Positions 13,968 to 39,067 of a DNA stretch of 64,000 bases are shown piece after piece. The stretch lies in IMG/VR virus record IMGVR_UViG_3300021420_000019, positions 37,524 through 101,523 of that record, one strand, 5' to 3'. Both the position numbers and the translations under genes were made by a program. The number at the start of each line of letters is the position of its first letter. Position 1 is the stretch's first letter. Source of the DNA: a virus. The notes beneath the pieces were generated by a model. The model worked only from the letters and a program-made list of their open reading frames with translations, was not told the DNA's origin and did not search any database.

Positions 13968-14017
13968 GTCGGGGTGGCTCACTCCACCCCGGCATCCCTA
14001 GTGAGAGGGAATAAATG
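13968..14017 (+). promoter_or_regulatory. Kissing-loop element, copy 2
   Basis: gtcggggtgg[ctcact]ccaccccggc a tccct[agtgag]aggga ataa ATG. Confidence 0.75.
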
Positions 14018-14830
14018 CACATCAGCGAGAAACAAGTTCCTGGGAAGGAACACACATTTGTAGCTGTGAATGGAAAGACCGAGACTGGGACTTTACCCGC
14101 TCTTCGTGGGCAAAGCAACTCTTTTGCGTTTTGGGTTAAAGACGAAGCTTGCATAAACGGTGGGTACTGGCGATCCCAGCTATATTTAACTCAGCGTAGA
14201 AAGGATTGGTCTACCGGAAAGAATGGCTTATTAGGGAGAATGAGGAACCTAATGAATAGCCAGAAGCAACAAGCTCAAAGAAACGGGCACAAGCCACCAC
14301 TTGTTACTGCCGAACAGATGTCATCAATGTGGGTGTCCCAGAACGGTTTATGCGCTGCTTGCGGTGGTCAGTTGAGTTTATTAGGTGCTGCTTTTGACCA
14401 CAATCATGAAACTGGCGAACCACGCGGCTTCCTTCATCAATATTGCAATATCGCTGAAGGATGTACAACGCGGATGACGGAAGAAGAATTCAGAAAATTT
14501 GTAGAGTTTATCGGGAGTATTAAGATGAAGCATGATAAAGCGTACGATCAGCCAACCAACATGGCTAACGCTGGCACGACCACACCGGCGGCTAAGGTAT
14601 CTGGCGATATCAAGAATGATGCCCTAGGCAACCCGAGCCGGTTCGCACGTAACGCGAGCACCTCGGTGACCGAAGACACTAACTCTGAGATCGATACCCT
14701 CCGCGAGCTTCAACTCGGTTCAAACGGATATCAGGCAAATGGGTACCACCCCAGGGTGGCGAACTCCCCAGTTCCTACGAGAGGTTTCGGAGAAAGTAAG
14801 GCAGATGTAGGCGGGTACCAAGGCGAGTAA
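14015..14830 (+). CDS. Endonuclease VII-family protein read in frame into a probable resident gene (internal RBS + ATG at 14525)
   Basis: QNGLCAACG...FDHNHETGEPRGFLHQYCNIAEG; gggag-N7-ATG before MKHDKAYDQP. Confidence 0.7.
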   Translation: MHISEKQVPGKEHTFVAVNGKTETGTLPALRGQSNSFAFWVKDEACINGGYWRSQLYLTQRRKDWSTGKNGLLGRMRNLMNSQKQQAQRNGHKPPLVTAEQMSSMWVSQNGLCAACGGQLSLLGAAFDHNHETGEPRGFLHQYCNIAEGCTTRMTEEEFRKFVEFIGSIKMKHDKAYDQPTNMANAGTTTPAAKVSGDIKNDALGNPSRFARNASTSVTEDTNSEIDTLRELQLGSNGYQANGYHPRVANSPVPTRGFGESKADVGGYQGE

Positions 14831-15017: not shown

Positions 15018-15040
15018 ATAAAGCTTGACAGGAGACTAAA

Positions 15041-15211
15041 ATGATTGTAGGATTAGCACTAATCGCAGTAGCAAGTTTCGCGTACGCGGTCTACAAGCAC
15101 ATGACCTTGTCTTCGGTCAAGGCCGCCGTTCTAGCGGAAGTTACAAAGGTCGAAGCGTCGGTTGTGCCCGAGGTTAAGGCACTCGCGGCAGCCATAAAGG
15201 CAAAACTGTAG
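15041..15211 (+). CDS. Small membrane protein (56 aa; not in the track)
   Basis: AGGAG RBS; MIVGLALIAVASFAYAVYK. Confidence 0.65.
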   Translation: MIVGLALIAVASFAYAVYKHMTLSSVKAAVLAEVTKVEASVVPEVKALAAAIKAKL

Positions 15212-15218
15212 ATTCAAT

Positions 15219-15295
15219 GGCGGACGGGGCGATACAGGTGACGCCCCAGACTGTGAATCTGGGTATAGTGGGTTCAAGGCCCATCGTCCGCCCCA
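15219..15295 (+). tRNA. tRNA-His(GUG)
   Basis: Cloverleaf; loop ctGTGaa; encoded G-1; CCA. Confidence 0.9.
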
Positions 15296-15335
15296 AAAAT
15301 TGTTACGCAGGTCCAAATCCTAGCGTGATGACCTG

Positions 15336-15389
15336 ATCGGGGAGTGCCAGTAACACTCCCTGATTTGACTCTTTACTGGAGGGTCTATG
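15336..15389 (+). promoter_or_regulatory. Kissing-loop element, copy 3
   Basis: ggggagtg[ccagtaa]cactccct gattt gactct[ttactgg]agggtc t ATG. Confidence 0.8.
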
Positions 15390-15887
15390 AGCAGTGCAAA
15401 AGATATGCGAGCGCAGTTGGGGATGTATCCTACAACCGCCAGGCATAAGTTAAATAGATTGATAATGTTTTCTTTAGTTCAGAAGTCCGGATTGGATTTG
15501 TGCTTTCGATGCGGAGAGAAGATACTGACGCCGAAAGAATTATCGGTAGACCATAAGTTGCCTTGGTTTCGTATTTCCACGGAGCTGTTTTGGGATTTAG
15601 AGAACATAGCCTTCTCACATTTCTCCTGTAACTCGGAAGAGGGCCGGTCGAGAAATCCGAGCAATACTAGGAATCCGAATTTAATAGCTCCTGACGGGAT
15701 GCTATGGTGCAGTAGATGTAAGGATTATAGACATATTGAAGATTTTAGTCCATCTAGACGAAAGTCTAATGTTGGGCACGTCTGTAGAAAATGCGTATCA
15801 GATAAAGAGAAAACACGCTATTCTAAAGCTGTAAATCGTCCGGTTAGAGGCTACCGACAAACTATGAAAGCCTCAAAAGATTTTTGA
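15387..15887 (+). CDS. HNH homing-endonuclease-like protein
   Basis: CFRCG...SVDHKLPW...NIAFSHFSCN plus C-terminal Cys cluster; paralog of the 18900 ORF. Confidence 0.85.
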   Translation: MSSAKDMRAQLGMYPTTARHKLNRLIMFSLVQKSGLDLCFRCGEKILTPKELSVDHKLPWFRISTELFWDLENIAFSHFSCNSEEGRSRNPSNTRNPNLIAPDGMLWCSRCKDYRHIEDFSPSRRKSNVGHVCRKCVSDKEKTRYSKAVNRPVRGYRQTMKASKDF

Positions 15888-15896
15888 AAATAAGTG

Positions 15897-15925
15897 TTGA
15901 CAAACAAAACGGTTTGTGAGACACT
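15897..15925 (+). promoter_or_regulatory. Probable promoter of the tRNA/ncRNA array
   Basis: TTGACA-N17-GACACT. Confidence 0.55.
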
Positions 15926-16148
15926 ATGAAAGTCGAGAACGGAGATACCCACCGACTAATGTCACGGGCTTCGCTCGACAAAGTTTGATACTGTTTCATG
16001 CCGGAGAGATGCTAAAGCCGTGCACGGCTAATCTGGTGTGATGACATCGACCGGAGTCACTCCCTTTAGGGCGTGAACTCCTTAGCCTGGTCAGCCGTTG
16101 ACGCGAAGGCATCCGGTCTAGAACGTTTTCGTCGGCGAATATTTTTAT

Positions 16149-16223
16149 CCTTGTCTGATGTTAATGGTAGCATTCCTGTTTGAAGCACAGGCTGTAACCG
16201 TTCGAGCCGGTTGGCAAGGACCA
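16149..16223 (+). tRNA. tRNA-Phe(GAA)
   Basis: cctgt ttGAAgc acagg; GTTCGA; CCA. Confidence 0.85.
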
Positions 16224-16305
16224 GTTAGAGACATGCGGAGTCCGCGACGGATAGAAACGGCGCGGAATCCTACAGCGAGACGCAAGTCACCATGTCCACG
16301 TTTAT

Positions 16306-16393
16306 GCGTCTGTGGATGGAATAGGCAGACACGTCGGTCTCAAAAACCGATGACAGAGATGGCGTGGGAGTTCGAGTCTCCCCGGACGCACCA
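16306..16393 (+). tRNA. tRNA-Leu(CAA)
   Basis: Class II cloverleaf; ctCAAaa; CCA. Confidence 0.9.
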
Positions 16394-16400
16394 ATTTTAT

Positions 16401-16490
16401 TGTGGGCAGCATTGGATGCAGCGGACACTTATAAAGTCCGAATCAGCAGATCGCTGAGCCGATAGGGTCCGATTCCCTAGTCCACAACCA
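16401..16490 (+). tRNA. tRNA with UAU anticodon (Ile) and long variable arm
   Basis: ctTATaa; V-arm tcagc-agatc-gctga; T arm taggg tccgatt cccta; CCA. Confidence 0.7.
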
Positions 16491-16495
16491 AGTTT

Positions 16496-16581
16496 GCCGT
16501 TGTGACGGAATGGTATACGAGGGAGTCTTAAAAACTCCTGTGCTCACGCACATGCTGGTTCGAGTCCAGTCAACGGCACCA
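16496..16581 (+). tRNA. tRNA-Leu(UAA)
   Basis: ggagt ctTAAaa actcc; CCA. Confidence 0.92.
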
Positions 16582-16585
16582 ATCT

Positions 16586-16653
16586 GGCGGAGACAGAGGT
16601 TCGATTCCTCTCTTAGGTCACTGACCCGAGTCGTCTAGCGGCAGGATACCGCC
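16586..16653 (+). ncRNA. Circularly permuted, anticodon-less tRNA mimic (YrlA-like topology)
   Basis: ggcgg-agac-[T arm agagg ttcgatt cctct]-[closed acceptor-like stem]-tc-[D arm gtctagcggcaggat]-a-ccgcc. Confidence 0.7.
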
Positions 16654-16908
16654 TAACAAGATCGCAAGTCCTACGGGGCGAACGATAGAACACGGCAGGG
16701 CGAACTCGGGTGGAAACACTTTAGAGCATCTGTGCTCCGTGGGCTCGGGGAACGCGACATCCCCAGAATTTGATATTCCAGAGACCTGTAAGTCCCTGAT
16801 ACGGCAAGGTCCCGGATTGCCAGGACGGTGCTACGCGCCACGATGGGGCCGCTTTGATGCTACTGGGCCAAGTTAACCAGTCAGTCCTGGCATAGGTATT
16901 CAAGTTTT

Positions 16909-16984
16909 GAATTCGTAGCTCAATTGCTAGAGCAATCGACTCTTACTCGATGGGTTGTGGGTTGGACTCCCACCGGATTCACCA
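16909..16984 (+). tRNA. tRNA-Lys(CUU)
   Basis: atcga ctCTTac tcgat; CCA. Confidence 0.9.
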
Positions 16985-17054
16985 AGTTTGACGTTCACTT
17001 AACAGTGAGATAACGACCGTAGCGGTTTCGCGTGACTCCGCCGTCAAAAGATTC

Positions 17055-17129
17055 GGATCGCTAATTCAAAGGCTAGAAGCGCTCTCTTTTAAAGAGTTAA
17101 TCTCCGTTCGAGTCGGAGGCGATCCACCA
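17055..17129 (+). tRNA. tRNA-Lys(UUU)
   Basis: gctct ctTTTaa agagt; CCA. Confidence 0.9.
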
Positions 17130-17137
17130 AGTTCTAT

Positions 17138-17225
17138 TGAGCCCATGACACAATGGTGTGTCCCTTCTCTGTAAAAGAAGCGGTCCTTGCGACCACGGTC
17201 AGTTCGATCCTGACGGGCTCAACCA
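17138..17225 (+). tRNA. tRNA-Tyr(GUA)
   Basis: cttct ctGTAaa agaag; long V-arm; CCA. Confidence 0.85.
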
Positions 17226-17226
17226 T

Positions 17227-17301
17227 AGTCGAGTAGCACAATGGCGGTGCAGACTCTTGATAGGAGTAAGGCTGTCCGTTCAAGTCGGACCTCGACTACC
17301 A
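17227..17301 (+). tRNA. tRNA-Ile(GAU)
   Basis: actc ttGATag gagt; CCA. Confidence 0.88.
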
Positions 17302-17377
17302 ATATTGATATCCGGGGGACTAACTAGGAGCCGTATAGCAGCCTAGTTCAATGCTGTACGGGAAACCTCCCCGGCGT

Positions 17378-17452
17378 GGGCGATGAGTAGGACGGGAATA
17401 TTCCTGCTTTGCAAGCAGCGAGAAATCGGTTCGACTCCGATATTGTCCACCA
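17378..17452 (+). tRNA. tRNA-Ala(UGC)
   Basis: ttTGCaa; G3:U70; CCA. Confidence 0.85.
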
Positions 17453-17459
17453 AATTTAC

Positions 17460-17532
17460 ACCCTGTTCGCCAAGCGGCTAAGGCATCTGGTTTACACCCA
17501 GACATTCGGGAGTTCAAATCTCTCACGGGGTA
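17460..17532 (+). tRNA. tRNA-Val(UAC)
   Basis: tctgg ttTACac ccaga; no encoded CCA. Confidence 0.88.
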
Positions 17533-17533
17533 C

Positions 17534-17609
17534 GGGCTGTTCGTTCACCGGAATAGGACACGACGCTACGAACGTCGAAAAAAGAGTTCGATTCTCTTAC
17601 GGCCCTCCA
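17534..17609 (+). tRNA. tRNA-Arg(ACG)
   Basis: cgacg ctACGaa cgtcg; CCA. Confidence 0.9.
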
Positions 17610-17613
17610 TCTT

Positions 17614-17689
17614 GACCCTGTAACTCAGCGCACAGAGTGTCCGCCTTCGAAGCGGTTCGCCGGGGGTTGGAATCCCTCCAGGGTCTCCA
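17614..17689 (+). tRNA. tRNA-Arg(UCG)
   Basis: ccgc ctTCGaa gcgg; CCA. Confidence 0.88.
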
Positions 17690-17798
17690 GTATGTTGTAA
17701 TACGAAGCGTAACACAACAGAAGGCGGCTACCAGTTGTGGGTAGGTCGCAAGTGAAATCCAAAGCACGTTCGGTGATAGCCCGGACAACATTTTCTGT

Positions 17799-17886
17799 TA
17801 AGGCGTAGGGGAATTGGTAGACCCGCTCGGCTGTTACCCGAGAGTCGTAAAGACACCTGTAGGTTCGAAACCTACCGCCTTAGCCA
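17799..17886 (+). tRNA. tRNA with Asn (GUU) anticodon and long variable arm
   Basis: ctcgg ctGTTac ccgag; V-arm gtc-gtaaa-gac; G73; CCA. Confidence 0.85.
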
Positions 17887-17894
17887 CTTTCAAA

Positions 17895-17969
17895 GGACGA
17901 TTAGTTTAATCGGTAGAACTGCTGTCTTGTAAACAGCGGGAAATGGTTCGAGACCATTATCGTCCTCCA
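17895..17969 (+). tRNA. tRNA-Thr(UGU)
   Basis: gctgt ctTGTaa acagc; CCA. Confidence 0.9.
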
Positions 17970-18041
17970 AGTTTTGTCTCTCGGTCATTATGGCCAAGCC
18001 GAGAAAATCTCTGTGGCGCAGAGTAAAGACAAAAAGTTTAA

Positions 18042-18116
18042 GCAGGGCTAGTATAATCGGTAGTACGCGCCCCTCGTAAGGTCGTAATGCGTGTTCGAGT
18101 CACGCGCCCTGCTCCA
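18042..18116 (+). tRNA. tRNA-Thr(CGU)
   Basis: ctCGTaa; CCA. Confidence 0.88.
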
Positions 18117-18177
18117 AGTTAAGCGGTGCCTCACTCTGATGTCCAGGTTAAATGTTCAGACAGCCGCTCTTGATTTT

Positions 18178-18251
18178 GCTGGCATAGCTCAATGGAAGAG
18201 CTTCCGCTTGGTAAGCGGAGGACTTGAGTCCGATTCTCAATGCTAGCTCCA
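18178..18251 (+). tRNA. tRNA-Thr(GGU)
   Basis: tccgc ttGGTaa gcgga; CCA. Confidence 0.9.
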
Positions 18252-18258
18252 ATTTTAC

Positions 18259-18336
18259 GGCCTGTTGGTCCAGCCTGGAGTGGACGCGTCCTTGTCACGG
18301 ACGAGATCGTGGGTCCGAATCCCACACGGGTCGCCA
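18259..18336 (+). tRNA. tRNA-Asp(GUC)
   Basis: cgtcc ttGTCac ggacg; GCCA. Confidence 0.9.
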
Positions 18337-18341
18337 TTTAC

Positions 18342-18415
18342 GGCCCTGTCGATTAGTGTCAGGTCATTCGCTTCTCAAGCGAACAGCAGCGGTTAGATTC
18401 CGCTCAGGGCCACCA
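18342..18415 (+). tRNA. tRNA-Glu(CUC)
   Basis: ttcgc ttCTCaa gcgaa; CCA. Confidence 0.88.
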
Positions 18416-18420
18416 AGTTT

Positions 18421-18497
18421 GAGGACATGGTCCAATCGGTAGCGATGCTGGCCTTTCAAGCCATGCGGTGCGGGTTCGAGTCCCGCTGTCCTTACCA
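18421..18497 (+). tRNA. tRNA-Glu(UUC)
   Basis: tggc ctTTCaa gcca; CCA. Confidence 0.88.
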
Positions 18498-18509
18498 AAT
18501 CGAGGAACT

Positions 18510-18770
18510 ATGAGCTGGGTGATGGTTAACGACTTCACCGTCGTGGAAAGAAAAGAAGACGGCACGGTAACACAGCAGGTGTTCACCTCGCACGCCCAGG
18601 CCCGTCAGTTCATGGAGAAGTACGCGGGACAAAAACCTATGAGGCCGCACAAGCCCACGATGCCTAGTCACGCTCGCGCTAGGTCCGGTAGTTCAAAGCC
18701 TATCATCCCGCAGACAGCGGAACAGATAGCGCTGAGAGAAGCGGCGCTGAAACAGTTTAACGGTTTGTAA
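18510..18770 (+). CDS. Hypothetical protein within the tRNA array
   Basis: GAGGA RBS, ATG 18510 (MSWVMVNDF...). Confidence 0.65.
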   Translation: MSWVMVNDFTVVERKEDGTVTQQVFTSHAQARQFMEKYAGQKPMRPHKPTMPSHARARSGSSKPIIPQTAEQIALREAALKQFNGL

Positions 18771-18777
18771 GTTTAAT

Positions 18778-18864
18778 CCGCTGGTGATGGAATTACCAGA
18801 CATGCGAATCTTAGAAATTCGTGCCCTATGTGGCGTGGGAGTGGAAGCCTCCCCCGGCGGACCA
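18778..18864 (+). tRNA. tRNA-Leu(UAG)
   Basis: cgaat ctTAGaa attcg; class II; CCA. Confidence 0.88.
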
Positions 18865-18899
18865 ATTTAAATCTTATCAACGACCGGGAGGTCAACGAT

Positions 18900-19337
18900 A
18901 TGAAACTGAAAGACGAATCTAAGTCAGAGCGTCGCGCTAATCAATTAGGAATGTCTTACGGTACAGCATCCGGTAGACTTCGTAAGATGATACTATTTGA
19001 TGTATTGAGAAAGCACAGCGAGAATAAATGTTTTAAGTGCGGCGAATTGATAGAGTCCGAAAAAGACTTAAGCATCGAGCATAAACAGCCCTGGGAAAAT
19101 AAAAATCCCGATCTGTTTTGGGATTTAAATAACATCGCTTTTTCTCACATGTGCTGCAACATACCGCATGTTTATAAGGGCAGCGGAGCGTCACTTAGAA
19201 AGATCGGTCCGGAAGGAACTTCGTGGTGCTGGCAGCATAAAGAATTTTTACCAATTGGAGAATTTTATACGGATTCTTCAAATTGGAACGGTCTACACAG
19301 CAGATGTAAATCTTGTCATAAGTCTAGACCTAGATAG
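18900..19337 (+). CDS. HNH homing-endonuclease-like protein
   Basis: GGAGG RBS, ATG 18900; CFKCG...SIEHKQPW...NIAFSHMCCN; paralog of the 15387 ORF. Confidence 0.85.
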   Translation: MKLKDESKSERRANQLGMSYGTASGRLRKMILFDVLRKHSENKCFKCGELIESEKDLSIEHKQPWENKNPDLFWDLNNIAFSHMCCNIPHVYKGSGASLRKIGPEGTSWCWQHKEFLPIGEFYTDSSNWNGLHSRCKSCHKSRPR

Positions 19338-19344
19338 TTTCTAC

Positions 19345-19419
19345 TGCCCGTTATAGTTCTGTTGAACTTCGAGGTCTCATAAGCCTTGCAGGTTGGTTAG
19401 ATTCCAACACGGGCTACCA
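19345..19419 (+). tRNA. tRNA(CAU), Met/fMet/Ile2 undetermined
   Basis: ctCATaa; U1-U72 mismatch; atypical D arm; CCA. Confidence 0.7.
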
Positions 19420-19425
19420 CTTTAA

Positions 19426-19499
19426 GCGTCTGTGATGTAACGGTAGCATATTTGACTGCCAGTCAAATCGTCTCGATTCGAATTCGAGTAGACGCCCCA
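19426..19499 (+). tRNA. tRNA-Gly(GCC)
   Basis: tttga ctGCCag tcaaa; CCA. Confidence 0.88.
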
Positions 19500-19596
19500 C
19501 ATTGATGTTCGCCTGTCCGTGGCGCGAGTAATTACCGCAGCCGCCCAGGCCGGAGCCCGATCCCGAGAGTGTAAAACGTCATAGTCGGAAAAATTT

Positions 19597-19713
19597 ATGA
19601 GTGAACAAAAACAGTGTTTAGAGTGCAAAGTTCCGATACACGAGGGTCCATTCGGCCCGTACATAGTGTATCTAAACGAAGACGGAACTCCACATATTTG
19701 CGATAAGAAATAG
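19597..19713 (+). CDS. Micro-protein (38 aa, MSEQKQCLEC...HIC)
   Basis: CxxC...HxC, possible Zn ligands. Confidence 0.45.
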   Translation: MSEQKQCLECKVPIHEGPFGPYIVYLNEDGTPHICDKK

Positions 19714-19717
19714 TTTT

Positions 19718-19791
19718 GCAAGCATGGTATATAGATTGTGCCCCGGCCTTCCAAGTCGGAGAATCGAGTTTGAGTCTCGATGCTTGCTCCA
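19718..19791 (+). tRNA. tRNA-Gly(UCC)
   Basis: ccggc ctTCCaa gtcgg; CCA. Confidence 0.88.
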
Positions 19792-19798
19792 AGTTTAT

Positions 19799-19873
19799 AT
19801 GAGAGTCGTCCAGCGGCCAGGACTGCGGTCTCCAAAACCGCGTACGGTGGTTCGAGTCCATCCTCTCATGCCA
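19799..19873 (+). tRNA. tRNA-Trp(CCA)
   Basis: gcggt ctCCAaa accgc; GCCA. Confidence 0.9.
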
Positions 19874-19878
19874 ATTTT

Positions 19879-19955
19879 GTCTCTATAGCTTAACGGATAA
19901 AGCGCCGAGCTTCTACCTCGGGACCACGCGGGTTCAATTCCTGCTAGAGACTCCA
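19879..19955 (+). tRNA. tRNA-Arg(UCU)
   Basis: ccgag ctTCTac ctcgg; CCA. Confidence 0.9.
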
Positions 19956-20031
19956 ATTTTCGTGGCCGCCCTAACGGGTATAAAACTATCGGGACGATAT
20001 AGACGGCGAAAATTCCCGAGCGGAAGATTAC

Positions 20032-20107
20032 GGACGCGTAGCACAGCGGACAATGCGGCTCTCCCCTAAAGAGTCAGGCCCAGGTTCAACTCCTGGCGCG
20101 TCCCCCA
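20032..20107 (+). tRNA. tRNA-Arg(CCU)
   Basis: gctct ccCCTaa agagt; CCA. Confidence 0.88.
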
Positions 20108-20351
20108 GTTCTACCGAGGTCTCATGTGGACCGCAGTCGTTGATGGCTACATCATAACACAAAGAATGTCCGATGACGACGTGTGGTTCAGATGTAACTT
20201 GTTCGGAAGGGAGCCGTTGATAGACGCACTTGAGAGGTTCCTGAAAGATACCGAAGACAATGGACACAAAGACTAAGAACGGGCTCCTGCGGCTCTCGAT
20301 ACTGTGGGGCCCGATAGCGATCTTGGTTATCTCGATTTTGACGAATTAGTT

Positions 20352-20641
20352 TGGCAGTCTAGACAATCGCGGGGAACCGAGGAAAGTCAGGACACAACTA
20401 AGTACAGTGCCGTGGGAGATGCGGGCCGGGCAACCGGACGGGTAAGCCTCCGTATCGCATTGCGAGTTAACACTCTCGTTGCGTTCATTGGAGCGGAGAC
20501 AGTCCACACTGGTGCAATCGAAAATAGGACCTGAGCGTTTACTTAGCGTGTTGAGGGTCGGGTTTCGAGCAAAGAGGAATGATTGTCGCCGCGACTTGTG
20601 TAGTATCGTTCGCGGAACAAAATCCTGCTTATTGACTGCCA
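20352..20641 (+). ncRNA. rnpB: RNase P RNA (compact, ~290 nt)
   Basis: P1 tggcagtc/gactgcca; P2 gacaatc/gattgtc; CR-I GAGGAAAGTCAGGAC; CR-V AACAAAATCCTGCTTAT with a compensatory P4 change. Confidence 0.92.
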
Positions 20642-20655
20642 CACTTTAGGATCAT

Positions 20656-20868
20656 ATGCCGCAATCAGTTGACGAAATTCTAGCAGGCGCAAAGGAAACA
20701 TTGGCGAACGCCAACAAGGCCTTCCCGAGTTCTTCTCCAGCGCCCCCGCAACCGCAGAAGCCCTCTTACACTGCGGCGCACGCAGCGAGAAAGGCCGTCC
20801 CGAGTATGGGCGATGAGCTAGCGGCTAAGGGCACGATGGTCGATAAAGCGAAACAGGCGTTGAAGTAA
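20656..20868 (+). CDS. Small hypothetical protein
   Basis: AGGA RBS; 70 aa. Confidence 0.7.
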   Translation: MPQSVDEILAGAKETLANANKAFPSSSPAPPQPQKPSYTAAHAARKAVPSMGDELAAKGTMVDKAKQALK

Positions 20869-20872
20869 TTAC

Positions 20873-20958
20873 GGAGCGGTGCCGAAACGGTAGCCGGATA
20901 TGTTTGCTAAACATACGTCCGAAAGGACGTGGGAGTTCGAGTCTCTCCCGCTCCGCCA
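20873..20958 (+). tRNA. tRNA-Ser(GCU)
   Basis: tatgt ttGCTaa acata; long V-arm; GCCA. Confidence 0.9.
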
Positions 20959-21094
20959 GATTGAATACTTGTCCGAAAGGGCATAGGGAACCTTAAACGG
21001 TAAAGACGCGAGAATATCTAAAAGCTATTCGAAGCGGACCTTGCAGTCGAAAGACGAAACTGAGAATCTTAGCAAGGGGTTCCCGAGCATTTAT

Positions 21095-21180
21095 GGAAAG
21101 CAGTCGGCAATGGTGCCTCACAGTCTTGAAAACTGTACCACCCGCAAGGGTGACGGAGTTCGATTCTCCGGCTTTCCTCC
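21095..21180 (+). tRNA. tRNA-Ser(UGA)
   Basis: acagt ctTGAaa actgt; long V-arm. Confidence 0.88.
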
Positions 21181-21254
21181 GTCCGAGTCGGCAAATGATA
21201 AGCTAGTCGTCCGCAAAACGACAATCGCTGGTTTGATTCCAGCCTCGGACTCCA
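21181..21254 (+). tRNA. tRNA-Cys(GCA)
   Basis: gtcgt ccGCAaa acgac; U73; CCA. Confidence 0.85.
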
Positions 21255-21263
21255 AATTTCTAT

Positions 21264-21337
21264 TCCCTTGTCGGCTAAAGGCAGGCCACGAGTCTTTGAA
21301 ACTCGTTACGGACGTTCGACCCGTCCCGAGGGAACCA
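21264..21337 (+). tRNA. tRNA-Gln(UUG)
   Basis: cgagt ctTTGaa actcg; CCA. Confidence 0.9.
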
Positions 21338-21344
21338 TTTCTAC

Positions 21345-21419
21345 TCCCGTGTCGGCTAACTGGAAGGCCAGCGCCCTCTGAAGGCGTTAATTTTCGTTCG
21401 AATCGAAACGTGGGAACCA
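21345..21419 (+). tRNA. tRNA-Gln(CUG)
   Basis: gcgcc ctCTGaa ggcgt; CCA. Confidence 0.88.
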
Positions 21420-21423
21420 TTTC

Positions 21424-21849
21424 ATGAAGAAACTGTTACTCGCTCTCGTGTTAATTTTGGCTCTCGCGACACCAGCGCAGCCGAGGCACCACGCGAGCCA
21501 AGGTATCATCATCGAGATTCACGCGAGCACCACGTACGAGACCGGCAGGTTGAAGCGGTTATCAGATAAGCTCAACTTCGACGGACAGCATATGGTCCCT
21601 TGGTGGAGAATCGTAGTTCTGAACAAAGCCGATTGGACAGATGCTCTCATTAAGTATAACCTCGAAGGGCAAACTGATAGCGCGTTCACCGTCCTAGGTC
21701 AGAACGTGACATTCGTGAACGAAGACTATATCGGCTTTGCCGATGACGCTAGGTTAGAACACACGCTAGCCCACGAAAGTGCTCATTTGATTTGTTCATG
21801 CACTAGTGAAGATACCGCGAATAAGATCGCGAAGATTCTAGAGAAGTAA
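21424..21849 (+). CDS. Exported zinc-metallopeptidase-like protein
   Basis: Signal peptide; HTLAHESAH. Confidence 0.65.
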   Translation: MKKLLLALVLILALATPAQPRHHASQGIIIEIHASTTYETGRLKRLSDKLNFDGQHMVPWWRIVVLNKADWTDALIKYNLEGQTDSAFTVLGQNVTFVNEDYIGFADDARLEHTLAHESAHLICSCTSEDTANKIAKILEK

Positions 21850-21926
21850 GCCGAGCAGAGGCTCCGAATTCGGAACGGTACGTTCTCGTTAGATGCTCTG
21901 TAAAGGATACGAGATCAGGTACTACA

Positions 21927-22682
21927 GTGAGAAAGTTTCTCGCATTGGCTCTATCGTTGGTCCTACTTATCTCCGGATCAGCCGTACTCATTACGGGCGC
22001 ACCAAGATCGTTTGAACCCCAGGCTCGCGCAGCCACGGGCGCTATCTTCGTTGATGCTGACCGTAGATTCGAATGTTCCGGAACTGAAATAGCTCACACG
22101 AAAGACGGTGACGGAATATTTTTGACGGCTCGTCATTGCGTTGCTTCTGTCGAAACAAACAAGATCACTCGGCGCATGCAACTGTCCTTTTCAGACAACA
22201 TGGGCGGACCTTACTACGATGCCGTACCGATTGCGATTTCAACCAGTGATGATCTAGCTCTTCTGCTTGTTAGAAATGGTGCGAGCATTCCAGAGGTGAA
22301 GATCAAGGACGAGCGTAGGCTACGCGGCGGTGATCCGATCTTTAACGTTAGCTACCCTCTCGGAGCAGGTAAGTTAATTTTTCATGGGGAATATTTAGCT
22401 CCCAGGTTCCCGATGTTTCCTGGCATACTTGCGGATTACCCCATGTGGCAGTTCGCGATGCCAGCAAATATTACGTGGGCTCACGGGTCCAGTGGTAGTG
22501 GGGTCTTCAGTAGCGGGCAGCGTGCTTTGATCGCGGTCTGTGTCGGAACGTTTTCTGAGGGCAGTTTCAACGTGGCAATCCCCGCAGATAGAGTACTTGA
22601 CTTTCTTGCGGATTTATCGGATAATACAGTTGAACGGTTTGCTTTGCAAAACCCTGAGAAGGAAGAAGTAGAAGTCTTTTAA
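21927..22682 (+). CDS. Exported trypsin-like serine protease
   Basis: Signal/TM segment; LTARHC, DDLALL, HGSSGSG catalytic motifs. Confidence 0.9.
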   Translation: MRKFLALALSLVLLISGSAVLITGAPRSFEPQARAATGAIFVDADRRFECSGTEIAHTKDGDGIFLTARHCVASVETNKITRRMQLSFSDNMGGPYYDAVPIAISTSDDLALLLVRNGASIPEVKIKDERRLRGGDPIFNVSYPLGAGKLIFHGEYLAPRFPMFPGILADYPMWQFAMPANITWAHGSSGSGVFSSGQRALIAVCVGTFSEGSFNVAIPADRVLDFLADLSDNTVERFALQNPEKEEVEVF

Positions 22683-22718
22683 TTTAATCAGATACGTTCC
22701 GCATAATTAACGGAACCA

Positions 22719-22771
22719 GGCTTGGGAGAGCCCCTACTCTCCCAGGCCGACTCTTAAGGGAGAGACAAATG
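22719..22771 (+). promoter_or_regulatory. Kissing-loop element, copy 4 (one mismatch)
   Basis: ggcttgggagag[ccccta]ctctcccaggcc ga ctct[taaggg]agag acaa ATG. Confidence 0.6.
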
Positions 22772-23419
22772 AAAGGACATCTTTACAGATATCCGCATCC
22801 GTATAGTTCAGATAAGTTTATTTACGCCGGGCAGGGCGAGAAACGCGATAATGAGCATCGCGGTGGCCGAACTAGTTTCGGTCGTAGATTCGAGAAACTA
22901 TTTCCCGGCATTGAATTGCCGAATCCGGTAAGAGAGACGATTGAAGTCCGAGATTATTTAGAGCTAAATGAACTAGAAATAATCTGGATGTTTCAATATC
23001 ATACTTGGCGTGGATATCCTGGCGGAATGAATTTAACTTTACCCGGGTCAATCGATTATAGGAGTATGGGTTTAATCGGCGGACGTGTTCAGGGCCCTAA
23101 GAACGTAGAATCGGGGGCGCTAGCAAAAATCCAAAGTGCAGGCGGGCGTGTTAGCGGTCGAATGAATTCTGAGTCCGGACGTATTCAAGAACTCGGTCAC
23201 ACGCAGGGTCGTAAGAATGTTGAAAGCGGGCAACTTGCCAGTATACAAAGTATGGCCGGTCGTGCCGGTGGGCGCATAGCTTTAGAAAGCGGACAATTTT
23301 CTGGAATCAGAAGCAGAGGTAATCATAGTCGTTGGCACATAGCCCGTGGTATTTCTAGACCGAGTGTTTGTTCGTTGTGTGCAGAAACAGAAAATTTAAC
23401 GAGAACTAGCTTAACGTAG
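22769..23419 (+). CDS. GIY-YIG-like homing endonuclease with Gly/Arg-rich repeats
   Basis: GHLYRY...FIYAGQG..R..EH, conserved E, GGMN; paralog of the 54573 ORF; 3' end overlaps tRNA-Pro. Confidence 0.7.
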   Translation: MKGHLYRYPHPYSSDKFIYAGQGEKRDNEHRGGRTSFGRRFEKLFPGIELPNPVRETIEVRDYLELNELEIIWMFQYHTWRGYPGGMNLTLPGSIDYRSMGLIGGRVQGPKNVESGALAKIQSAGGRVSGRMNSESGRIQELGHTQGRKNVESGQLASIQSMAGRAGGRIALESGQFSGIRSRGNHSRWHIARGISRPSVCSLCAETENLTRTSLT

Positions 23420-23473
23420 AGCACGTGCTTTGGAAGCACGGGGGTGAAGTTTCGAGCACTTCGTTCTCGACCA
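23400..23473 (+). tRNA. tRNA-Pro(UGG)
   Basis: cgtgc ttTGGaa gcacg; ACCA. Confidence 0.85.
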
Positions 23474-23481
23474 GTTTAAAA

Positions 23482-23555
23482 CGGAAATTCTGATAATGGT
23501 AGTCTCTACGTTTCGGATACGTAGGGCGGACGTTCGATTCGTCCATTTCCGACCA
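23482..23555 (+). tRNA. tRNA-Pro(CGG)
   Basis: tacgt ttCGGat acgta; ACCA. Confidence 0.85.
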
Positions 23556-23564
23556 CATTAAAGT

Positions 23565-23595
23565 GAGCTTCCAGAAATGGGGGCTCTTGTATTTC
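23565..23595 (+). terminator. Probable intrinsic terminator ending the tRNA region
   Basis: gagcttcca gaaa tgggggctc followed by ttgtattt. Confidence 0.5.
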
Positions 23596-23605
23596 TAGGA
23601 GTGTC

Positions 23606-25138
23606 ATGGCTACAGTAACTCAGCAGTTAGGCAGAGCAGCGGCGTATGATCTATTGGCGGCAGCGGGCATTACGAACACAGGTTCAAGTATTATTGCCGG
23701 GGGAAACGTAGGAAGCTTTCCCACAGCAACCTACACTCTTGATGGAATGATCTTTATTCCTCCCGCAGCATTAGATTCAGCAGACGCTCAGAACGCCCAG
23801 ATCGACAACAATGCCGCCTTCCTCTTCTTCCAAGCTCTGCCTCAGACAATGGCCCTCTCAACAGCCGACATCGGCGCGACCGGCATTCAACACAGCCCCG
23901 GTGCCCCCAATGGCACCTACTATCCTGGCGTATATGTTTCCCCAAGTTCAATTGCAATTTCTACTCCAGTCACTCTAGATGCGCAGGGCAATCCTAACGC
24001 GGTGTTCGTATTTTATTCTACGGGTTCAACTATCACTCAGGCTATAGCTGGCACAATTAACTTGGTCAACGGAGCAAAGGCCGCTAACGTAGTGTGGCTC
24101 GTGGGTAGCTCTTGGACTAGTATCGGCCCCGGCGCTTTGACACAGGGCAACATTATTGCGGCCACCTCTATCACTTTAGGTGGGGGAGTACTCAATGGTA
24201 GGGCACTCGCGGGAGCGGTAAACTCCAGCGGAGCGATCACGATAGCTGCGGCAGAAAGTATCACTGCTCCGGCCAGCGTCGGTACTCCAACTACAGCGGG
24301 CGGTCAAGCTCAAGCTTTGATCGCTACACAACCTGGGGTTTCGGTTCCCACGGCTTATCCTCAAGTTACAGGCCAAGGAATTATTCCTCCTCAAGATTTG
24401 GATATGCTTCAGATCATCGGAGAGGGCGGAGATATTTTAGTATCTGTAGATTATCTTGGAACAGTTCATAACGTTACAACTAGCCAGTCATCTACGTCTC
24501 CATTGACCTCAGTTGCGATCTCTTCGTTCCCAATTACCTCTGTCACATCAGCGGGAGTATACACCGGAACATTTCCTGCGGGCACGAATACAGTAGCCGG
24601 TCAGACTGCGGTCATCTCTGGCTTCACGAACGGCGGCAATAATGGAACGTTCACGATCACCGCATCTACAGCGACAACTATCACCGTGACCCCGAACACG
24701 CAAGTTAACGAGAGCGCTTCGGCTCAAGCGTTAATTACGGGCTTTAGTCAAAGTACCTATAACGGAACTATCACAAACGGCGCGGCCAGCGGGCTCGCCG
24801 GACGCTTTGTTTCGGTCACTGGCTTCACGAACTCGGGTAACAACATCTCTAACACCTTGGTTATCTCAAGCACCGCGACAACTATCGTGACATCTTACAC
24901 CGCGCAGGTCGCTGAGACACACGCGGCTACCGCCACTGTGTCTGCGTCGTTCACGCCGTCTAACGGCTGCCGATTGGGCCAGTATTTCACGAGGCTCCTA
25001 CCCGGTGCAACTATCGCTCAGTTATTTACCGACGCTTTTGCTAACCCCAGTCTCTTGGACATCGTCCATGTGTATGTACCGAATAGTGGGGCCATCGTCT
25101 ACATTTTGGATCACAACGGCGTGGCTAGTGGCAGCTAA
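23606..25138 (+). CDS. Putative virion protein with DUF3494 ice-binding-like domain
   Basis: LLAAAGITNTG...PGVY...VTLDAQGNPNAVFVF...LVNGAKAANVVWLVGSS...GNIIA...LNGRALA. Confidence 0.85.
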   Translation: MATVTQQLGRAAAYDLLAAAGITNTGSSIIAGGNVGSFPTATYTLDGMIFIPPAALDSADAQNAQIDNNAAFLFFQALPQTMALSTADIGATGIQHSPGAPNGTYYPGVYVSPSSIAISTPVTLDAQGNPNAVFVFYSTGSTITQAIAGTINLVNGAKAANVVWLVGSSWTSIGPGALTQGNIIAATSITLGGGVLNGRALAGAVNSSGAITIAAAESITAPASVGTPTTAGGQAQALIATQPGVSVPTAYPQVTGQGIIPPQDLDMLQIIGEGGDILVSVDYLGTVHNVTTSQSSTSPLTSVAISSFPITSVTSAGVYTGTFPAGTNTVAGQTAVISGFTNGGNNGTFTITASTATTITVTPNTQVNESASAQALITGFSQSTYNGTITNGAASGLAGRFVSVTGFTNSGNNISNTLVISSTATTIVTSYTAQVAETHAATATVSASFTPSNGCRLGQYFTRLLPGATIAQLFTDAFANPSLLDIVHVYVPNSGAIVYILDHNGVASGS

Positions 25139-36841: not shown

Positions 36842-39067
36842 ATGCCTTTAGTCGGTCAGGCCAAGCAAGATTGGGAGTTCGTAAGCTATCGTGCGAAACG
36901 GCAGACCGAGTACTGGGCCCGCATTGTAGACGGTGACGTGACTCTGGCAAGGGAACTCGATCCAGAGATTCTTGCAGCCGCGCTGAGTCAAGATAAGCCG
37001 TTCCGTTCAGAGGGACTGACCCTGAAGGAACTGTGGATGCTCTATATTGGCGTGAATAAGCTAACCGAGGAAGAGGAACAGCGCGGAAAGAAAAAGAAGA
37101 AAGACCAGTCTATCGAGCCGATCAAGTCCCGAAGGATCGCTGGCATGCCGCTGTTGGATAAGAAGGGAGTTCCAACGGGCGAGTACGAATATGGTGTCCA
37201 CTTTCACGATTCTGGATATCTGCACTTCGACCAGTGGCTATACGCACGAGATCAGGCCCGTAAGAACCTGTTGTGGTTGAATCGAGAAGTTCTCGGCAAT
37301 ACCCTTGTAATCGAGAGGGTTCATCAGCAGGTTTGCGATCAGTTTGTCTTCCCGAACTTTGATGGCGTGTACCGTCACGGATACACGATCCAGGAACTGA
37401 CCGGCACTATCAAGAACTTGAATAGAGTTCCTAGAAAGTGGGACCTGGAATCTCGAAACTACGTTCCGAGGACCCAGACCGATATCGAGAACCCGGATAA
37501 CTACGCTAAAATTTCCATGACCGAGGACGCTAGAGACTTTTTCAAGTCAACCATCGGTCGCGCTCACGTAATTCAGTTGATGCTGGCGATACCGGATGTC
37601 AGCATCATCATCTGTTGCGCGGATAACAACCTCGCTGAAATTTTCGTAACTGAAATCAAAAAGAAGTTCTTTCTCGGTGCAGGAGCAGACCCAGGTCCTA
37701 TACATCTGCTATTTCCTGAGTACGTTCTACGCGGGGTTAAGGGAACGTCTAACGAGCCCCTTTGGACTCCGGCTCGTAGGCTAGAGCGAACATATCCTAC
37801 CCTGTGGGCCGACTCAATCGAGTCCACACTGTCTGGTTTGCATTGCGATTTCTTCAACTTGGACGACGTGATCTCTAACACGAACTGTCAGACTCCGATC
37901 ACCCGCGAAAAGATGAAGAACCATATCGATACTAACATGTCGGTGTGCGACACTTGGGGCTGGATCAACATAATTGGCACCAGATACTTTCCGGATGATT
38001 ATTACGGGTATCTGGAGGCCATGTCGATAGAGAAGCCGGAAATTTACGGCATTAAGCTCTTCAAGAGAGCGGCCTGGTATGTAAAGCCAGAGTTCGCTCA
38101 CATCGGGAATAAGAAAGTCAAGATGCTCGAAGAGCACATGGTCAACTTGACCTTCCCAGAGCACGCCGACTGGAAGTTCCTCCAGGGAAAGCTAAGAAAC
38201 GAGTACACGTTCCGTTGTCAGTATCTGAACGAGCCCGTCTGGGGTTCGGATCAGATCGACATGCCCTTAGAGTTGTTGAAGGCCCACCTGATGAACCCGA
38301 TGGAGTCCAATACTCTACAGGGCGAGATTTTTGTCATGGGCGATATGGCGAAGGAAGCCAAGAAGAACTCGGATTACTCTACCTTCGTCGCGATGAAGAT
38401 TTACAGGAAGCGGGACCCGAACACACAGCAGCAAGACGGAACTGTCGCGGTTGTGATCCTTGAGGTCGTTTATGGCCGCTGGACACAGACCGAGACAGCA
38501 TACCAGCTCGCACAAATTAACAGGAGATGGAACCCGCGTCGTATTCAAATAGAGAATACAGGCGGACTGGAGTCGTTCATCTCTTACGCCATACCCGAGG
38601 CGTTTAGAAAGACGGGCCAACCCTGGTACCACATATTTTGGGCACCAGTTGAGCAAGGCTACGACGCAAAAAGAAACAGAATAAAAGGTCTAGAGGTTCT
38701 TTTAAAAGCTGATCGACTTTATTTTGCTATGGGGCCCTGGAACGACGAAGCTTTCACACAGTTAAGTCAATACACTGGCGCGAAGAGCACCCGTTCTAGG
38801 AAGGATGATATACCGGACGCAATGTCATTTATCAGCCGGTATCTTCCCAGTAGTTCTCCAAAGTCCCCCGAGCAACAGCAGCAAGAGGTAGATCAGCAAG
38901 AGAAAGAGATGGGCGCAAAATTACTAAAGGCGCAGCACGACGCGATGTTCGGTCCGACGAGTTTTAATTACACTCCGCCAGCCGAGCCCGCACCAATATC
39001 TTCAAACCCTAGCGGTAACACCGGGCTAGTCGGACGTTTATTCGGCGGGAACGGGATGAGAGCATAA
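36842..39067 (+). CDS. Terminase large subunit
   Basis: ARDFFKST (Walker A-like), GLHCDFFNLDDV, IGTRY...D, F.CQYLN.P, GDMA...SDYS, KDDIPDAMS. Confidence 0.9.
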   Translation: MPLVGQAKQDWEFVSYRAKRQTEYWARIVDGDVTLARELDPEILAAALSQDKPFRSEGLTLKELWMLYIGVNKLTEEEEQRGKKKKKDQSIEPIKSRRIAGMPLLDKKGVPTGEYEYGVHFHDSGYLHFDQWLYARDQARKNLLWLNREVLGNTLVIERVHQQVCDQFVFPNFDGVYRHGYTIQELTGTIKNLNRVPRKWDLESRNYVPRTQTDIENPDNYAKISMTEDARDFFKSTIGRAHVIQLMLAIPDVSIIICCADNNLAEIFVTEIKKKFFLGAGADPGPIHLLFPEYVLRGVKGTSNEPLWTPARRLERTYPTLWADSIESTLSGLHCDFFNLDDVISNTNCQTPITREKMKNHIDTNMSVCDTWGWINIIGTRYFPDDYYGYLEAMSIEKPEIYGIKLFKRAAWYVKPEFAHIGNKKVKMLEEHMVNLTFPEHADWKFLQGKLRNEYTFRCQYLNEPVWGSDQIDMPLELLKAHLMNPMESNTLQGEIFVMGDMAKEAKKNSDYSTFVAMKIYRKRDPNTQQQDGTVAVVILEVVYGRWTQTETAYQLAQINRRWNPRRIQIENTGGLESFISYAIPEAFRKTGQPWYHIFWAPVEQGYDAKRNRIKGLEVLLKADRLYFAMGPWNDEAFTQLSQYTGAKSTRSRKDDIPDAMSFISRYLPSSSPKSPEQQQQEVDQQEKEMGAKLLKAQHDAMFGPTSFNYTPPAEPAPISSNPSGNTGLVGRLFGGNGMRA

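Follow-up and report, generated by a model that had tools for sequence, protein, structure and literature searches.

The stretch of DNA analysed in this work (64,000 nucleotides, hereinafter the window) is part of an IMG/VR virus record of 101,523 bp that is 95% complete according to CheckV, and it harbors the genes for the terminase large subunit (TerL, 36842-39067) and the portal protein (39069-41189). An array of 31 tRNA genes covering 19 amino acids, all of them on the + strand, occupies positions 15220..23555, as delineated by ARAGORN and Rfam. A promoter-like site (15025-15053) and a terminator-like hairpin (23565-23586) lie at its two sides, the counts obtained in the scan for such signals being close to those expected from shuffled sequences; another promoter-like site (20338-20367) was dismissed since it overlaps the RNA described below. 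On the basis of TerL, the nearest cultured relative is Tunturi_3, a Tunturiibacter phage (i.e., a phage of Acidobacteriota) sharing 26% identity, and the best DNA match among public runs is a soil metagenome. The host is likely a bacterium living in soil. A second soil run and a lake run contained small shares of words, but these came from cross-matching tRNAs of other organisms, and no habitat was inferred from them.

Some other genes of this region deserve mention. Homing-type endonucleases are encoded in the array or at its edge, namely an Endonuclease VII (14015-14830) and two HNH proteins (15387-15887 and 18828-19337), and four members of the phage clade considered below carry relatives of the HNH gene starting at 18828 in their arrays. 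Directly past the array and the terminator-like hairpin, a gene (23606-25138) codes for a protein of 510 aa in which an ice-binding-like domain was recognised (PF11999, E 8e-29). The sole tRNA with a GUU (Asn) anticodon (17799-17886) is 88 nt long and exhibits a long variable arm, an 11-nt D-loop and a G73 discriminator; the same long-armed form of a GUU tRNA is found at another phage locus (L286, 3053-3140). In bacteria, this type II shape belongs to the tRNAs for Leu, Ser and Tyr, and it is possible that the GUU tRNA might be charged with serine.

Within the tRNA array, at positions 20352..20641 of the + strand, lies a gene of 290 nt for an RNase P RNA descended from the bacterial type A, which runs from the 5' end to the 3' end of helix P1 and is supported by a match to the Rfam family RF00010, by covariation and by a contig from an RNA library. 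An earlier note on this DNA had placed a compact, phage-encoded RNase P RNA at this point of the array and had proposed a search with the Rfam covariance models as a check; the assignment is borne out by our data, and the coordinates coincide with the outer ends of P1 (UGGCAGUC / GACUGCCA). Indeed, when the 601 bases from 20200 to 20800 were searched with reporting by E-value, RF00010 (bacterial class A) matched positions 20351-20646 over model positions 1-367 with 86.1 bits (E 1.1e-26), well outside what chance would produce. The match is full-length and RF00010 is the best-scoring Rfam family for the element, weaker matches to other families of the clan being suppressed in the scan; the search of the whole record returned the same single match (E 4.5e-28). 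However, the score lies below the curated gathering score of the family (100 bits), so that routine annotation overlooks the element: at the gathering threshold, Rfam gave 24 tRNA matches and no RNase P in the 64-kb window. The element departs from type A in three features, i.e., the score relative to the Rfam cutoff, the absence of P13/P14 with the CR-II/CR-III joints, and the absence of P18.

The helices were mapped from the Rfam alignment and from the relatives of the element, and all coordinates given below refer to the + strand. The RNA possesses P1 (8 bp), P2 (7 bp), P3 (3 bp), P4 with a bulged U, P5, the P6 pseudoknot, P7, P8, P9, P10, P11, a P12 hairpin, J5/15, P15, P16, P17, L15, CR-IV, a P19-like hairpin and CR-V; P13, P14, P18 and the canonical CR-II/CR-III joints are absent. 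The CR-I and CR-V motifs, P1, P2 and the very short P3 that had been noticed previously are all present in the sequence. The 5' strand of P1 (20352-20359) pairs with 20634-20641, and the helix measures 8-9 bp in all 13 sequences when these are compared after justification at their ends. P2 is formed by 20362-20368 and 20581-20587 (GACAAUC/GAUUGUC), with 100% of the cells paired and six of the seven pairs changing on both sides. P3 (20370..20379) is minimal, with 3 bp (CGG/CCG) and a GGAA loop, and the same site is occupied in the relatives by 3 bp with a GAAA loop or by inserts of up to about 60 nt. CR-I and the 5' strand of P4 (GAGGAAAGUCAGGAC, 20379..20393, with the bulged U at 20387) pair with 20624-20630, which belong to CR-V and the 3' strand of P4 (ACAAAAUCCUGCUUA, 20617..20631). 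The resulting pseudoknot has 7 bp, is 100% paired in the 13 sequences and covaries at three of the seven pairs (A-U/G-C/C-G; G-C/U-G/U-A; A-U/C-G/G-C/U-A). The change from C-G to A-U in this helix (GUCAGG / CCUGC), already pointed out in the earlier note, is real; in cells, P4 is almost invariant.

The P6 pseudoknot joins CUAAGU (20398..20403) to the loop L17 (ACUUAG, 20541-20546), with 94.9% of the cells paired and five of six pairs changing on both sides; its combination with P16/P17 is the hallmark of type A, type B RNAs having P5.1/P15.1 instead. The segment 20514..20568 embeds J5/15 (GCAA), P15 (UCGA/UCGA, 100% of the cells paired and 4/4 pairs covarying), P16, P17 and the 3' side of L15, where CGGGU (20559-20563), which contains the predicted CCA-binding GGU, is invariant in the 13 sequences. 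In bacterial type A RNAs, the GGU of L15 binds the 3'-CCA of tRNAs, and the finding that about 28 of the 31 tRNA genes encode the CCA fits the invariant core motifs and the CGGGU of L15. CR-IV (AGAGGAAUG, 20573..20581) follows the 3' strand of P15 without any P18, the hairpin with a GNRA loop that takes 24 nt in the model (0 nt here); P18 is missing from some bacteria too, and hairpins stand at its site at two of the phage loci (L283 and L279). Lastly, a P19-like hairpin is located in J2/4 (20589..20615, CCGCGA/UCGCGG); it occurs in 9/13 relatives with differing sequences and is absent in four.

The specificity domain (S-domain, 20405..20511) is reduced, as had been proposed, and the proposal proved right in detail: P7, P8, P9 (with a GCAA loop), P10, P11 and a P12 hairpin (about 20456-20483) are kept, whereas P13, P14 and P18 are gone. 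The portion that in type A includes P13, P14 and the CR-II/CR-III joints measures 62 nt vs 105 in the model. The RF00010 consensus used for this comparison was taken from a full-size phage copy; with respect to it, the canonical J11/12 ACAGAAA and J12/13 GUGAAA (corresponding to CR-II and CR-III) have disappeared, and P12 is flanked, where these joints would stand, by GUA on the 5' side and by CAUUGGAG on the 3' side. The latter is a conserved single-stranded element (20486..20493; CAUUCRAG in the relatives) that replaces J12/13-P13-P14-J14/11, with positions A136, U137, U138, A141 and G142 invariant in alignment A3 (see below). From its sequence, it looks like a T-loop motif (UUCRA). At position 96 (20447) and at the third base of this motif (position 139, 20490), 10 sequences have G-C, and the window and its closest relative (L066) have C-G, a swap which, being a single evolutionary event, is a hint of a pair and not a proof of it. 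In type A RNAs, the CR-II/CR-III joints dock the tRNA elbow, and the loss of such joints together with P13, P14 and P18 weakens substrate binding and folding in bacterial ribozymes.

The selection on structure that the earlier note had read from the change in P4 is supported by compensatory changes scattered throughout the RNAs of 13 related phages. Alignment A3 comprises these 13 RNAs, all from phages related through TerL and including that of the window, and 60 pairs were counted in it, leaving out P1 and P19 (misaligned because of end gaps) and P12 (unalignable). Standard pairs were found in 97.5% of the cells vs 35-39% when the partners were slid by 1-3 columns. Although the structure derives partly from the same 13 sequences, it agrees with the slid controls as well as with the Rfam model, which is independent of them. 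Changes on both sides affected 44/60 pairs (164 cells), and none of 500 shuffles attained any of these measures. Every counted helix except P10 exhibits compensatory changes, which are abundant in P2, P5, P6, P7, P9, P11, P15 and P16.

A profile search with TerL gathered a clade of ~100-kb phages to which the window belongs. RF00010 matches were obtained in G042 (whose TerL is 74% identical), G014 (42%), G035 (40%) and nine further records, and the element is present in 7/7 clade genomes that are at least 90% complete (the window's own record, G042, G014, G129, G135, G140 and G143); hence, it is conserved in the near-complete genomes of the clade despite a TerL identity decreasing from 74% down to about 35%. 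No RF00010 match was found in Tunturi_3. The copies of the clade always lie in a tRNA array and on the strand of the tRNAs, and the viral setting with a same-strand array is shared by 12 clade relatives and by most of the other matches. In the window, the conserved neighbors are a tRNA-Arg(CCU) upstream (20032..20107, +) and a tRNA-Ser(GCU) downstream (20873..20958, +, ARAGORN). G042, G131 and G129 show the same arrangement, Arg(CCU) - RNase P RNA - Ser(GCU), and in G131 and G129 the RNase P RNA is separated from its neighbors by 2-8 nt upstream and by 4 nt downstream.

As far as expression is concerned, a contig of 272 nt (depth 5.2) was found in a soil metatranscriptome produced by a different study from that of the likely source sample, and it aligns over its whole length, without gaps and with 100% identity, to positions 20365-20636. 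This contig fits a discrete and stable RNA of the predicted size; since contigs cannot show ends and a carry-over of DNA is possible, it proves neither transcription nor the ends of the RNA. The flanks of the ribozyme gene were not covered in the same run, which, by the rule of the search tool, is not evidence either way. Regarding the protein partner, the lack of rnpA that had been reported for the window holds for the whole 101.5-kb record, where the Pfam family Ribonuclease_P (rnpA, PF00825) gave no match at E <= 1. In a further 30 viral records bearing an RNase P RNA (8 of which are at least 90% complete), no match to this family was obtained at E <= 0.01, the control genomes being positive. 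The simplest reading of these gene contents, and a plausible one, is that the phage RNA would use the RnpA of the host.

The homology, the fold and the selection acting on it, the conserved position and the presence in an RNA library point to an RNase P RNA of type A descent that is functional and belongs to the phage, and that would likely join host RnpA and cut the 5' leaders of phage pre-tRNAs, and we consider this explanation to be probable. According to this model, the ribozyme would be transcribed together with the 31 tRNA genes of the phage and would fold into a standard catalytic domain (P1-P6, P15-P17, CR-I/IV/V, the bulged U of P4 and the GGU of L15) and a trimmed S-domain (P7-P12). 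The RNA would most likely pair with the RnpA protein of the host, the holoenzyme would then remove the 5' leaders of the pre-tRNAs encoded by the phage, and the phage would in this way gain a tRNA maturation capacity of its own during the infection. What stands against the model is the score below the cutoff, the loss of CR-II, CR-III, P13, P14 and P18, and the lack of an obvious need of the phage for such a ribozyme, given that every host possesses one.

A further issue concerns the tRNAs on which the ribozyme would act. The earlier note suggested that the reduced S-domain may tolerate the non-canonical T-loops of the array, an idea that, as stated, is not supported, in that 24/31 T-loops of the window are canonical (TTCRA), the remaining seven deviating at position 55 or 56. 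Across 21 phages, the canonical share is 67-100% (at least 80% in most of them) in the carriers of ribozymes devoid of the S-domain and 43-89% in the clade of the window plus G043. Since phages whose ribozyme lacks the S-domain have mostly canonical T-loops, there is no parallel between the size of this domain and the deviance of the T-loops, and we rejected the general rule that a smaller S-domain entails more deviant T-loops, the deviant share being no higher as the ribozyme shrinks. A base other than C at position 56 (G, A or U) was found in 28/157 tRNAs of the clade (window 15220-23555; L317, L318, L322, L323, L324) and in 3/116 tRNAs of the other phages bearing an RNase P RNA. In all 28 clade tRNAs, G18 is kept and the base at position 19 restores a Watson-Crick pair (C19-G56, U19-A56 or A19-U56), against a null expectation of 0.24, an example in the window being the tRNA-Lys(CUU) at 16909, with C19-G56; a further 19 tRNAs of the clade have C or G at position 55. 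Judging from these sequences, the elbows of the clade are intact but swapped. They co-occur with a clade ribozyme that replaced the elbow-docking joints; this co-occurrence does not establish a link, and a connection between the S-domain and T-loop tolerance can be regarded as a possibility.

It could be imagined, as a special case of the main explanation, that the remodelled S-domain has co-evolved with the swapped-elbow tRNAs, the ribozyme thus preferring phage pre-tRNAs or those that the host handles poorly. The full compensation of the non-C56 tRNAs, their scarcity in the other phages with an RNase P RNA and the replacement of CR-II, CR-III, P13 and P14 by the conserved CAUUCRAG element in the clade would be in agreement with this idea, which we nevertheless regard as rather unlikely: most T-loops of the window are canonical, as are those of the phages whose ribozyme has no S-domain, the co-occurrence is confined to one clade and maybe reflects one evolutionary event, and the reading of the elbow by stacking need not be base-specific. 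Indeed, stacking is reportedly the way in which the elbow is read in the structure of the Thermotoga maritima RNase P-tRNA complex, with no need for base specificity. It is likewise doubtful that the phage clade has an orthogonal channel of tRNA maturation, in which the elbow-docking module (CR-II, CR-III, P13, P14) would have been swapped for the T-loop-like element, about a fifth of the tRNAs would be elbow-swapped, and ribozyme and substrates would have co-evolved away from the system of the host; if this were true, the phage would keep making tRNAs when the RNase P or the tRNAs of the host are disabled.

Another possibility is that the RNA dispenses with host RnpA, acting by itself or together with a phage protein that escaped recognition and is encoded, for example, by an adjacent small ORF. 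The absence of rnpA from the 31 viral records is what this hypothesis would predict, and a 70-aa ORF does lie directly downstream of the ribozyme gene (20656..20868, +) and is conserved in the closest relative, being 56% identical over 69 aa and at the same place in G042 only. However, none of the other 11 clade loci has this ORF, for which no match was found in Pfam or PHROG either, and bacterial-type RNase P RNAs need a protein in vivo, so that we judge such independence improbable. A second flanking ORF, of 50 aa, has neither a Pfam/PHROG match nor a relative in the clade loci. According to another hypothesis, the RNA would be a decoy binding host RnpA or pre-tRNAs without cutting them, and would shut down the tRNA maturation of the host; the phage has no rnpA and the RnpA-binding regions of bacterial enzymes (P2/P3, CR-IV and CR-V) are kept, but so are all the features of the catalytic core (the bulged U of P4, J5/15 and the GGU), of which a sponge has no need, and a block of RNase P would hit the 31 tRNAs of the phage itself, which makes this possibility very slight. 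Hardly any credit can be given to the idea of a decaying, functionless piece of host rnpB captured by chance, to which the score under the cutoff and the three missing helices might lead, since chance and a decaying pseudogene are ruled out by the covariation in the 13 sequences (97.5% pairing and 164 double-sided compensatory cells), the element is kept in all the near-complete genomes of the clade while TerL falls to about 35% identity, and no close cellular donor was found.

The statement of the earlier note that viral RNase P RNAs are rare needs correction, given that limited motif and TerL searches yielded at least 31 RF00010-positive IMG/VR records, plus loci in tRNA arrays with canonical core motifs. 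The exact CR-I variant GAGGAAAGTCAGGAC occurs at 59 viral loci, and 20 of the 49 records with this variant that were searched gave an RF00010 match, with lengths of 158-363 nt. All of these 20 share CR-V, though it was not a selection criterion, and most of them are found inside tRNA arrays or next to them, with the same orientation as the tRNAs. Mini RNase P RNAs of 158-249 nt lacking the S-domain (L065, L069-L080) are located in phage tRNA arrays, again on the strand of the tRNAs. Many of the mini copies have the same A-U variant of P4 and CR-V as the window; the copy of the window differs from them in being an intermediate form, with the S-domain remodelled and not deleted, and in coming from a clade of ~100-kb phages that is separate from theirs. 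Phage tRNA arrays also harbor copies with the canonical P4 motifs, and most phage copies are under the Rfam cutoff and are thus missed by standard annotation. A scan of viral contigs for the CR-V motif gave mostly chance matches and 1 new ribozyme among 79 records not already known, and blastn of the element and two relatives against 50,697 GenBank phages, a weak tool for such RNAs, detected no homologue. Matches to the canonical-P4 motif were also observed at the ends of viral contigs with no adjoining tRNA (L326, L330, L332, L334, L336-L339, L342), and these have the appearance of bin contamination or of host rnpB genes at the borders of proviruses, and not of phage genes. On the cellular side, the strict A-U pattern of P4 at full-size spacing was found at 16 MAG loci in 185,579 species genomes. 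No tRNA was found near any of these loci, which presumably represent the rnpB genes of the cells themselves; their resemblance to the window is limited to the core, so that no close cellular donor emerged.

The comparison with known systems places the phage RNA closest to the bacterial type A (RF00010; the E. coli M1 RNA encoded by rnpB), with which it shares P1-P12, P15-P17, the P4 and P6 pseudoknots, CR-I/IV/V, the GGU of L15 and the optional P19. It differs from it in its length (290 nt vs a consensus of 367), in the lack of P13, P14 and P18, in the 3-bp P3, in having GUA and CAUUGGAG in place of CR-II/CR-III and an A-U pair in P4 where bacteria have C-G, and in being encoded by a virus within a tRNA operon without an rnpA partner gene. 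The pattern of losses recalls the archaeal type A (RF00373), which reportedly also lacks P13, P14 and P18. In contrast with the archaeal RNAs, the phage RNA scores best with the bacterial model (in a scan where the other clan matches are suppressed) and has the bacterial-style GGU in L15 and P6/P16/P17, and the tRNAs and genes of the phage are of bacterial type. Archaeal RNase P RNAs work with four or five proteins. Natural reductions that keep the catalytic core are represented in cells by the type T RNA of Pyrobaculum (RF02357) and by the RNA of Mycoplasma fermentans (276 nt); the former has lost nearly the whole S-domain, whereas the copy of the window keeps P7-P12, and the latter is a type B RNA, whereas the phage RNA is of type A descent.

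To our knowledge, RNase P RNAs have been considered a cellular and organellar hallmark. In the literature covered, which did not extend to subscription journals, where prior work may exist, we found no report of an RNase P RNA encoded by a phage or another virus, and such RNAs seem to be unreported in print. A virus-encoded copy would add the 5' processing of tRNAs to the translation-related functions carried by phages. Moreover, the phage copies found span from 363 nt to about 155 nt, with that of the window (290 nt) in between, and represent a natural minimisation series able to show what the ribozyme can do without in vivo, which has hitherto been studied mostly through engineered deletions. 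The clade also provides many covarying sequences at positions that are near-invariant in cells, e.g., the three pairs of P4.

Some features of single phage loci are worth reporting. At L010:9725-9875, a mini RNase P RNA of ~155 nt has its core motifs ~100 nt apart and is directly followed by a tRNA, in a record with no RF00010 match at E <= 0.01. A structured module of ~60 nt (GGAUGGUAUGCYGAAUCC ... GGUAGGGAAACCGARGCAAAGAGUCCC), matching no Rfam family, is inserted into P3 of one ribozyme and P12 of another (L068:1524-1581, +, and L067:1660-1730, -). The 'tmRNA' called by ARAGORN at L282:1299-1596 (-), which overlaps with two tRNA-Lys genes as well as with the 3' portion of the RNase P RNA, is probably a false call. 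At three loci (L280:1417-1898, L286:1411-1883 and L065:407-749, the last on the - strand), the ribozyme gene directly adjoins a tRNA gene on either side, the distance being 0-8 nt (0-1 nt in L065), and in such copies the processing of the adjoining tRNAs could also generate the ends of the ribozyme, which would itself make the cut at the downstream tRNA.
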